Shown here in pieces: positions 20,463 through 22,353 of a stretch of 64,000 nt of DNA. The notes beneath the pieces are model-generated. The model searched no databases. It was not told the DNA's origin and saw only the letters and a program-made list of their open reading frames with translations. Numbering within the stretch: position 1 is the stretch's first letter; every line of letters begins with the position of its first letter. Origin of the DNA: an uncultured Emticicia sp. (GTDB lineage: Bacteria > Bacteroidota > Bacteroidia > Cytophagales > Spirosomataceae); contig CALCZQ010000061.1 of NCBI GenBank assembly GCA_937903345.1, forward strand, positions 46,784 through 110,783. The letters are read 5' to 3'. A program made the translations under genes and the position numbers.

Positions 20463-22259
20463 TTAAAATACCAACTCCAAACCCAATTTATCTCTTAATT
20501 CTAATAAAGCAGGATTTTTATTGGCTAAATATTCAAATTTCTCCTGTGCAGTATAAGGTCGGCGTTCGGTAGTTGACTCTACAATTTCAGAGGTAATTTG
20601 TATTGAAGCATTTCTTAGACTTTGACGGAGAAAAGTAGCCAATTCTTGTTTCAATTGTACCAAAGTATCCATCTGAATCTGATTATCCAACTGCAACTTA
20701 AAGGTTGTACCTTCCAACACAAAATCACGCTTGAGCATTACCTTTAAAGTCTCAATATCTCGTTCATTGGCAAATGTAAATAATGCTTGTTGAGCAGTTT
20801 CATAAGTAAACGAATCATGATAATTTGGCAAAAATGGCTCATTATCAACACTTTTCACTTCCATTTTTGGGCTTAAAACCGTAGTTTCAATATCAACAGT
20901 AGAGCGAAGTTTTGAAGAAGCCATCGAAGGGCGGGAAGCTGGCTGTGCACTCTGAGCGGTACTTGACGAATTAGGCATAACCAGTCTTTCAGGCACAGCA
21001 GGTATCGAATCCACGTAACTTGACCTTGCTTGAGAAGTTGTAGTAGCAATGGCTAAGTCAGATTTCTGTTCCGAACTCTCAGCCCTTGCTTTTGATTGTA
21101 AAGCTATTGAATTACTATTTTTTTTTTCGTCCCCGTTGTTGGGTAGCTCACTCAGCGTCAAAACTTGCTGAATCTGTGAGAGTTTCATTAACCCAATTTC
21201 AACGTGTAAACGCTGATTTTTAGCCGATTTATAATTTAAATCAAGTTGGCTTCCAATACTTAACGAAGAAAATATATAACCTAGCGATAATTTAGCCGAT
21301 TGCTCAATGTATCGTTGTTGAATAGAATCAGCCACCTGCAAAAGCTTTACTGTTTGCGGGTCTTTACTTACCATGATATTTCTAAAATGTTCATTCAAAC
21401 CCACCACAAACTGGTGTCCATCGAAACCTTTTTCCAAAATTTCATTGTATAATAAAAATGCTTCCGACACATTTCCTGTCCATAAAGCCTCGGTCATACG
21501 GAAGTAATAATCATAATCAAGAATATGTAAATTTTCTAATACAGCTTGATAAGTCAAACCATTTCCAGAAGAAAAAGTAACATTCAAATCAAACATCGAA
21601 AGGGCATCACGCAAACCACCATCAGCCTTCTGGGCAATCAGTTCAAGTGCTTGATAATCAGCTTTAACAGCTTCTTTTACAGCCACATTTGCCAAATGAT
21701 CGGCAATGTCTTTTATTTGAATACGGTTAAAATCAAAAATCTGACAACGACTCAGAATAGTTGGCAAAATTTTGTGTTTTTCAGTGGTTGCTAAAATAAA
21801 AATGGCGTAGCTTGGCGGCTCTTCGAGGGTTTTCAAAAAAGCATTGAAAGCCGAGGCTGAGAGCATGTGAACCTCATCAATGATATAAATCTTATACTTG
21901 CCCGATTGCGGTGGAAAACGCACTTGGTCAGTCAAGTTTCTAATATCTTCGACCGAGTTATTGGAAGCCGCATCAAGTTCGTGAATATTAAACGAGGCAT
22001 TATTATTGAAACTCTTGCAAGAATCACACTCATTACACGGCGAAATATCTTCTGTAAGATTTTGACAATTGATGGTTTTGGCCAAAATTCTGGCACAGGT
22101 TGTTTTACCAACACCACGAGGGCCACAAAACAAAAACGCCTGTGCCAAATGATTGGTGCGAATGGCATTTTGCAAAGTAGTTGTTATGTGCGACTGACCC
22201 ACAACTGCATCAAAAGTTATAGGGCGATATTTTCGAGCAGAAACAACAAATTTTTCCAT
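20463..22259 (-). CDS. dnaX: DNA polymerase III subunit gamma/tau
   Basis: ARKYRP, GPRGVGKT (Walker A), ELDAASNNSV, IIDEVHML, LKTLEEPP and TILSRCQ. Confidence 0.97.
   Translation of the reverse strand: MEKFVVSARKYRPITFDAVVGQSHITTTLQNAIRTNHLAQAFLFCGPRGVGKTTCARILAKTINCQNLTEDISPCNECDSCKSFNNNASFNIHELDAASNNSVEDIRNLTDQVRFPPQSGKYKIYIIDEVHMLSASAFNAFLKTLEEPPSYAIFILATTEKHKILPTILSRCQIFDFNRIQIKDIADHLANVAVKEAVKADYQALELIAQKADGGLRDALSMFDLNVTFSSGNGLTYQAVLENLHILDYDYYFRMTEALWTGNVSEAFLLYNEILEKGFDGHQFVVGLNEHFRNIMVSKDPQTVKLLQVADSIQQRYIEQSAKLSLGYIFSSLSIGSQLDLNYKSAKNQRLHVEIGLMKLSQIQQVLTLSELPNNGDEKKNSNSIALQSKARAESSEQKSDLAIATTTSQARSSYVDSIPAVPERLVMPNSSSTAQSAQPASRPSMASSKLRSTVDIETTVLSPKMEVKSVDNEPFLPNYHDSFTYETAQQALFTFANERDIETLKVMLKRDFVLEGTTFKLQLDNQIQMDTLVQLKQELATFLRQSLRNASIQITSEIVESTTERRPYTAQEKFEYLANKNPALLELRDKLGLELVF
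21112..21128 (-). other. Candidate slippage/frameshift site in dnaX: G-A10-TAG-TAA
   Basis: The minus strand reads GAC GAA AAA AAA AAT AGT (D377-E-K-K-N). One extra A gives AAA TAG TAA. One A fewer gives IVIQ*. Confidence 0.6.
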
Positions 22260-22353
22260 GTCGCAAGTTACAAAAAAAATAGAATTTTAGGAGATTTTCA
22301 TCCACAGAATCATTTGATTTATTTACTTTTGTAGAGAAAAACCAAAGGATAAT

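Follow-up and report, generated by a model that had tools for sequence, protein, structure and literature searches.

An A10 run at the gamma/tau boundary of dnaX in an uncultured Emticicia sp. is a probable transcriptional slippage site that is conserved across Bacteroidota

Recoding of dnaX, the gene for the gamma/tau subunit of DNA polymerase III, has been described in two forms. In Escherichia coli, gamma is made by a -1 programmed ribosomal frameshift at A_AAA_AAG, which is accompanied by an upstream Shine-Dalgarno (SD)-like element and a downstream stem-loop. The Thermus thermophilus gene uses programmed transcriptional slippage (Larsen et al. 2000 PNAS 97:1683, as cited in PMC1088944 and PMC5009743). 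A dnaX gene split into two open reading frames (ORFs) around an A10 run was reported for Flavobacterium johnsoniae, F. psychrophilum, Cytophaga hutchinsonii, Capnocytophaga, Chlorobi, and Coraliomargarita, and transcriptional realignment was predicted for it by alignment to the A9 site of Thermus (Antonov et al. 2013, NAR 41:6514, PMC3711429, Suppl. Fig. S3). Outside dnaX, slippage stimulated by a stem-loop in the nascent RNA occurs in the Roseiflexus IS630 insertion sequence (Penno et al. 2015 PNAS 112:E1984, as cited in PMC5009743). Here we analyze a 64,000-nucleotide stretch of DNA (hereafter the window) from an uncultured Emticicia sp. (contig CALCZQ010000061.1), which carries a dnaX gene with ten consecutive A's at the gamma/tau boundary. 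Based on its sequence context and conservation, we predict that this run is probably a programmed slippage site of the Thermus thermophilus type that gives rise to both tau and gamma.

The dnaX ORF lies on the minus strand at positions 20463 to 22259 (stop codon included) and encodes a 598 amino acid protein in frame 0, which corresponds to tau. Profile matches identify it as the DNA polymerase III gamma/tau gene. The NCBIfam gamma/tau equivalog NF011531 matches aa 1-596 with 813 bits (cut-off 685), and TIGR02397 (dnaX_nterm) matches aa 6-360 with 421 bits. The Pfam domains are DNA_pol3_delta2 (PF13177, aa 22-180), DNAX_ATPase_lid (PF22608, aa 185-232), and DNA_pol3_gamma3 (PF12169, aa 244-368). 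The nearest named dnaX genes are those of Dyadobacter (77%) and Runella (74%). Domains I-III form the clamp-loader core (aa 1-368; 21156-22259, minus strand), which would be common to tau and the predicted gamma. The part found only in tau (aa 382-598; 20466-21116, minus strand) consists of a linker that is high in S, A, and T by composition count (aa 382-470), followed by a conserved C-terminal domain. We found no Pfam family match for these 217 amino acids, even at E ≤ 1, and the final ~100 match relatives across the whole order.

The A10 run (21118-21127, minus strand) follows shortly after the end of domain III at aa 368. It begins at nucleotide 1133 of the coding sequence, directly after D377, and lies in phase 1 within codons 378-381 (GAA AAA AAA AAT). 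The minus strand at the site reads CCC AAC AAC GGG GAC GAA AAA AAA AAT AGT AAT TCA ATA GCT. One extra A, or a -1 shift, leads to a 381 amino acid product ending in DEKKK, with a TAG at 21117-21115 and immediately after it a TAA at 21114-21112 (tandem stops, 21112-21117, minus strand). One A fewer gives a 384 amino acid product ending in DEKKIVIQ, which terminates at a TAG at 21106-21104 (minus strand); two extra A's use the same stop and give 385 amino acids, and three extra A's restore tau at 599 amino acids. The shifted frames therefore stop 0 and 4 codons past the run. The run also contains an in-phase A_AAA_AAA heptamer (GA A_AAA_AAA), for which TAG is the next codon in the -1 frame. A preliminary description of this DNA had pointed to the A10 run with immediate tandem stops at the gamma/tau boundary, and every detail that it gave is correct by our check of the sequence and ORF. 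Both of its predicted short products (381 aa ending in DEKKK, and the one ending in DEKKIVIQ) were reproduced by frame-by-frame translation, and what it said of E. coli (-1 shift at A AAA AAG) and Thermus (slippage on a homopolymer) agrees with the literature.

The arrangement resembles that of Thermus dnaX, with a single tau ORF, a run of A's on the sense strand past the clamp-loader core, and near stops in both shifted frames. For both genes, any change in the number of A's that is not a multiple of three would lead to gamma. The Thermus run is an A9, whereas the window gene has an A10 in an AT-rich Bacteroidota host, a predicted site located ~64% along the ORF, and a small upstream hairpin that is conserved phylum-wide. 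The two-ORF genes of Antonov et al. share with it the A10, the domain boundary, the phylum, and the predicted mechanism, and families that are sisters to that of the window have exactly the two-ORF layout. Frame 0 encodes gamma in those genes and the slip is required for tau, whereas in the window the register is reversed and tau is in frame. There is no frameshift in the DNA here, and therefore detectors of frame transitions such as GeneTack would have nothing to detect. E. coli dnaX is comparable in gene, domain boundary, and an in-phase A heptamer, and its gamma likewise ends within a codon of the shift site. The site in the window differs from it in lacking an AAG codon and a downstream stem-loop, and it is by the absent stem-loop that the site departs from the E. 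coli type. Further differences are that the Bacteroidota run is 10 long in any phase, that a stop in the +1 frame is also conserved, and that the conserved structure is upstream.

Conservation within the genus was assessed in 24 relatives with 72-96% amino acid identity in DnaX. All 24 have a run at this site and in 23 it is exactly A10. Among the 24 genomes of the genus that carry A10 (the window's own genome included), the ten A's are 100% identical in a run-anchored alignment, as are three of the four nucleotides before the run (-4, -3, and -1), while flanking columns in the linker are 40-60% identical. The downstream stops vary between TAG, TAA, and TGA yet are always present, at 0-2 codons past the run in the frame of one extra A and at 3-5 codons in the frame of one A fewer. 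Five metagenome contigs of the clade were recovered with a pattern that permits A8 to A13, and all five have A10.

One relative (G021, locus L024, G021:C1:1223083-1227225) has A9 rather than A10 (run on the minus strand, locus position 2633). Gamma is there in frame 0 and tau in the frame of one extra A, and the missing A is the sole coding indel relative to three relatives. This A9, from a 5-contig assembly that is 91% complete, reflects either a true change of register or a miscalled homopolymer. An allele of this kind would be expected if the run were a site of DNA-level phase variation, at which replication slippage flips cells heritably between alleles with tau in frame and alleles with gamma in frame. 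We consider phase variation highly improbable, given that the 23 other relatives in the genus, the window's own genome, and the five metagenome contigs all have exactly A10. An off state would also be lethal unless rescued at the transcript level, as tau is essential, and the A9 may be a sequencing error.

The run extends well beyond the genus. We compiled 110 dnaX loci, 30 from relatives and 80 named ones from a scan of species genomes, including Dyadobacter, Runella, Rufibacter, Hymenobacter, Pedobacter, Mucilaginibacter, Sphingobacterium, Chitinophaga, Saprospiraceae, Flavobacteriales, and Bacteroidales. A run of A9 to A11 occurs at the boundary between domain III and the linker in 99 of the 110 (85 A10, 9 A9, and 5 A11), and the carriers span Cytophagales, Sphingobacteriales, Chitinophagales, Flavobacteriales, and Bacteroidales. 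The run is found in codon phases 0, 1, and 2, so that the encoded peptide changes with phase and the length stays at 10. It is kept in 16 of 20 loci with at least 45% GC. Hymenobacter (59-62% GC) keeps it though AAA makes up just 8-50% of the Lys codons in the same gene. Near stops are conserved as well: both shifted frames stop sooner than the same-gene median in 95-97% of the 86 loci with tau in frame, at a median distance past the run of 1 codon (one extra A) and 4 codons (one A fewer). After de-duplication (n=60), the binomial p is ~3e-14 for the frame of one A fewer, a value that, like the other p-values given here, overstates independence since the loci are phylogenetically related. Over these loci, the run is conserved beyond what protein sequence and codon bias explain, as expected of a recoding signal that is kept across Bacteroidota.

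A few loci depart from this pattern. No run of at least nine A's is present at the boundary in L027 (G026, a ~1.0-Mb genome), L029 (G027), L119 (G033), L124 (G032), L126 (G037), L102 (Ca. Bacteroides intestinavium), or L093 (Draconibacterium orientale). In Pontibacter rugosus (L038, NZ_JBHTLD010000384.1) the boundary run is only A7 (GGATC AAAAAAA GCTAAGGTAG), yet each shifted frame still reaches a stop 4-5 codons on, counted from the codon in which the run begins. Slippery runs shortened in this way may lean more on their context.

Thirteen of the 110 loci have a frame 0 that closes a few codons past the run and a conserved tau C-terminus encoded in another frame, which is reached by one extra A in 12 of them. 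Both registers occur within the order of the window. Of 16 other families, eight have A10 with gamma in frame, three have A10 with tau in frame, and five are without a long run; the window gene, with tau in frame, is not of the two-ORF layout. Tau is described as the essential subunit in the abstract of a preprint (bioRxiv 10.1101/2022.11.10.516041). Because tau is essential and frame 0 gives gamma in these sister lineages, they must recode efficiently at A10. These lineages in which tau needs an extra A, together with the anatomy of the site and its conservation, are directly seen in the DNA. The presence of reversed registers in one order illustrates how recoding at ~50% would allow a single base change to swap the standard product.

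We also predict RNA structure directly upstream of the run. In the window, CCC (21141-21143) pairs with GGG (21132-21134) to form a hairpin at 21132-21143 (minus strand) with a 3-bp stem and a 6-nt loop, and 4 nt separate its 3′ arm from the run. The stem alone has -4.3 kcal/mol (a value taken from relatives that carry it alone), and the 32-nt fold, which includes a second small hairpin further upstream, has -7.0 kcal/mol. Compared with other positions along the same dnaX gene, it ranks at the 1st-2nd percentile. Within the genus the stems differ yet stay complementary (CCC/GGG, CTTCCT/GGGAAG, CTGCC/GGCAG, TTGTCG/CGACAG, TCAG/CTGA, and CCGG/CCGG). A GGGGA motif located 3-7 nt upstream in the genus, which is the candidate for an SD-like stimulator, is part of the 3′ arm of the hairpin and lacks conservation at the level of the phylum.

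Folding of the 32 nt that precede the run gives a minimum free energy structure whose 3′ arm ends 0-5 nt from the run in 87 of 99 loci. After de-duplication at 60% identity (n=57), 53% of the loci fall below the 10th percentile of their own gene. True pairs of 5′ and 3′ halves are more stable than chimeras made between loci (-5.9 vs -3.3 kcal/mol, Wilcoxon p ~3e-6). The 40-nt upstream folds were only weakly separated from mononucleotide shuffles (median z -0.28), and the signal emerged only when position relative to the run was combined with own-gene or chimera controls. Downstream of the run we found no stem-loop: the 40 nt past it are at the 53rd percentile of the window gene, and over 99 loci the median percentile is 0.56-0.61 relative to windows of the same gene. 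The literature searched contained no mention of a hairpin upstream of dnaX recoding sites, and its phylum-wide occurrence is the least documented aspect of the site.

Together, the run and the stops suggest that one gene very probably makes both tau and gamma by way of the run. In the favored mechanism, an all-rA:dT RNA:DNA hybrid of 9-10 bp would form on the ten template T's and the nascent RNA would slide along it, which would add A's and less often drop them. Transcripts with 10 or 13 A's would encode full-length tau (598 or 599 aa). Those with 11, 12, or 9 A's would run into the nearby stops and encode a gamma-like protein of 381-385 aa, which would keep domains I-III and be without the linker and the C-terminal domain. 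The nascent hairpin, which ends 0-5 nt before the run, probably aids the slip in a manner known from hairpin-stimulated slippage and from intrinsic terminators. We infer from the comparisons above the step at which the slip would occur (transcription), its efficiency, and the use of the short protein.

The same two products would result from a -1 ribosomal shift on A_AAA_AAA with termination at the TAG, as at the A_AAA_AAG of E. coli, and this alternative has several features in its favor. The heptamer is in phase, and the stop in the -1 frame is immediate and the better conserved of the two shifted-frame stops. The frame needed for tau in 12 of the 13 loci with gamma in frame is exactly that of -1, or of one extra A. 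Among 30 tRNAs parsed, aragorn gave tRNA-Lys(UUU) only, and transcriptional and ribosomal mechanisms are considered interchangeable in dnaX (Antonov 2013, PMC3711429).

Nevertheless, we consider the ribosomal shift unlikely as the explanation. RNA polymerase is favored because the run keeps a length of 10 whatever its codon phase. This is close to the 9-10 bp of the RNA:DNA hybrid, whereas seven A's would suffice for the ribosome. It is also favored because the stop in the +1 frame is kept close, which matters only if transcripts vary in their number of A's, and because there is no downstream stem-loop and a hairpin is found upstream instead, where it fits an effect on RNA polymerase. In E. 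coli, A_AAA_AAA is far less shift-prone than A_AAA_AAG. Bacteroidota make little use of SD pairing, so an upstream SD stimulator is unlikely. The preliminary description had proposed that this dnaX makes both tau (598 aa) and a gamma of ~381 aa by recoding. It named conservation of the poly-A and of the shifted-frame stop in relatives as the test, and the outcome is strongly positive (the run in 99 of 110 loci and the near stops in 95-97% of those with tau in frame), in support of that proposal. It had left the mechanism open, and the comparative evidence favors transcriptional slippage over the -1 ribosomal shift.

Several points weigh against slippage as the explanation for the window site, in addition to the relatedness of the loci mentioned above. 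With the heptamer in phase, a ribosomal -1 shift could contribute or even dominate. The hairpin in the window genome is weak, with only 3 bp. We found no role for gamma in Bacteroidota, nor a description of the DnaX forms of this phylum, in the literature searched. A single A10 is not improbable at the genome GC of 35.5%, and the window alone is weak evidence. AAA makes up 83% of the Lys codons and GAA 79% of the Glu codons in this genome, and codon bias alone would write an EKK followed by a codon that starts with AA as an A10 in about half of cases.

These codon preferences are also what would be expected if the run had no recoding role and were simply a lysine patch (EKKN or KKK) at the start of the linker, written in A-rich codons in a gene that makes tau only. 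About eight sense-strand A runs of at least 10 occur in long open frames of the genome, dnaX among them, so that ~7 others share this feature. We consider a lysine patch very unlikely. The length of the run is constant at 10 while the peptide shifts with phase, near stops are retained in both shifted frames, and lineages in which frame 0 ends at the run would make no tau without recoding. The run is also kept in GC-rich lineages that prefer AAG, and codon bias as a full explanation was ruled out on these grounds. Long A/T runs are depleted genome-wide, and their number falls sharply from 238 runs of 9 nt to 19 of 10 nt, 2 of 11 nt, and 1 of 13 nt. The dnaX run is the only A10 or T10 within the 64-kb window, where dinucleotide shuffles give ~12. 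The case for more than chance is made by conservation and not by the run itself.

The other sense-strand runs of at least 10 A's in the window's own genome (G000), in open frames of at least 150 aa, include an A11 (C8:28898-28908) and an A13 (C1:82862-82874). Further A10 runs are at C9:32101-32110, C32:7262-7271, C45:15711-15720, C45:33357-33366, C53:28850-28859, and C66:833-842. These might be slippage or phase-variation sites, start-codon artefacts, or chance occurrences.

If transcriptional slippage is correct, the whole phylum would solve the tau/gamma problem in the manner of Thermus rather than of E. coli. Standard annotation gives one 598 amino acid protein at this locus and misses a probable second clamp-loader subunit. 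Sister lineages have this essential gene annotated as two apparent fragments, and recognition of A10 as a recoding signal would correct both errors. A prediction from 2013 already covered the mechanism and its occurrence in Bacteroidetes, and the value of the window gene is mainly for annotation and as a well-documented example.

The geometry of the site is similar to that of Roseiflexus IS630, in which a slippery motif of ~10 nt is likewise directly preceded by a hairpin, in an arrangement like an intrinsic terminator. The U5C5 motif of IS630 needs its hairpin in order to slip, whereas an A10 should slip alone, and the dnaX hairpin would tune the slip rather than enable it. We suggest, tentatively and with doubt, that the hairpin and A10 form a terminator-like, tunable slippage device in nearly all Bacteroidota. 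The hairpin would set the ratio of tau to gamma at RNA polymerase, perhaps through elongation rate or ATP supply, and the registers would flip freely since slippage would be near 50%. With such a device, hairpin-assisted slippage would for the first time be placed in an essential cellular gene rather than in an insertion sequence.

Upstream of dnaX there is a T8 element (minus strand, 22272-22279; A8 on the opposite strand) located 13 nt before the ATG at 22259 and followed by GTAACTTGCGAC-ATG. The T8 and GTAACTTGCGAC-ATG are nearly letter-for-letter identical in most members of the genus. The element could be part of a Bacteroidota-type promoter or of a very short leader.

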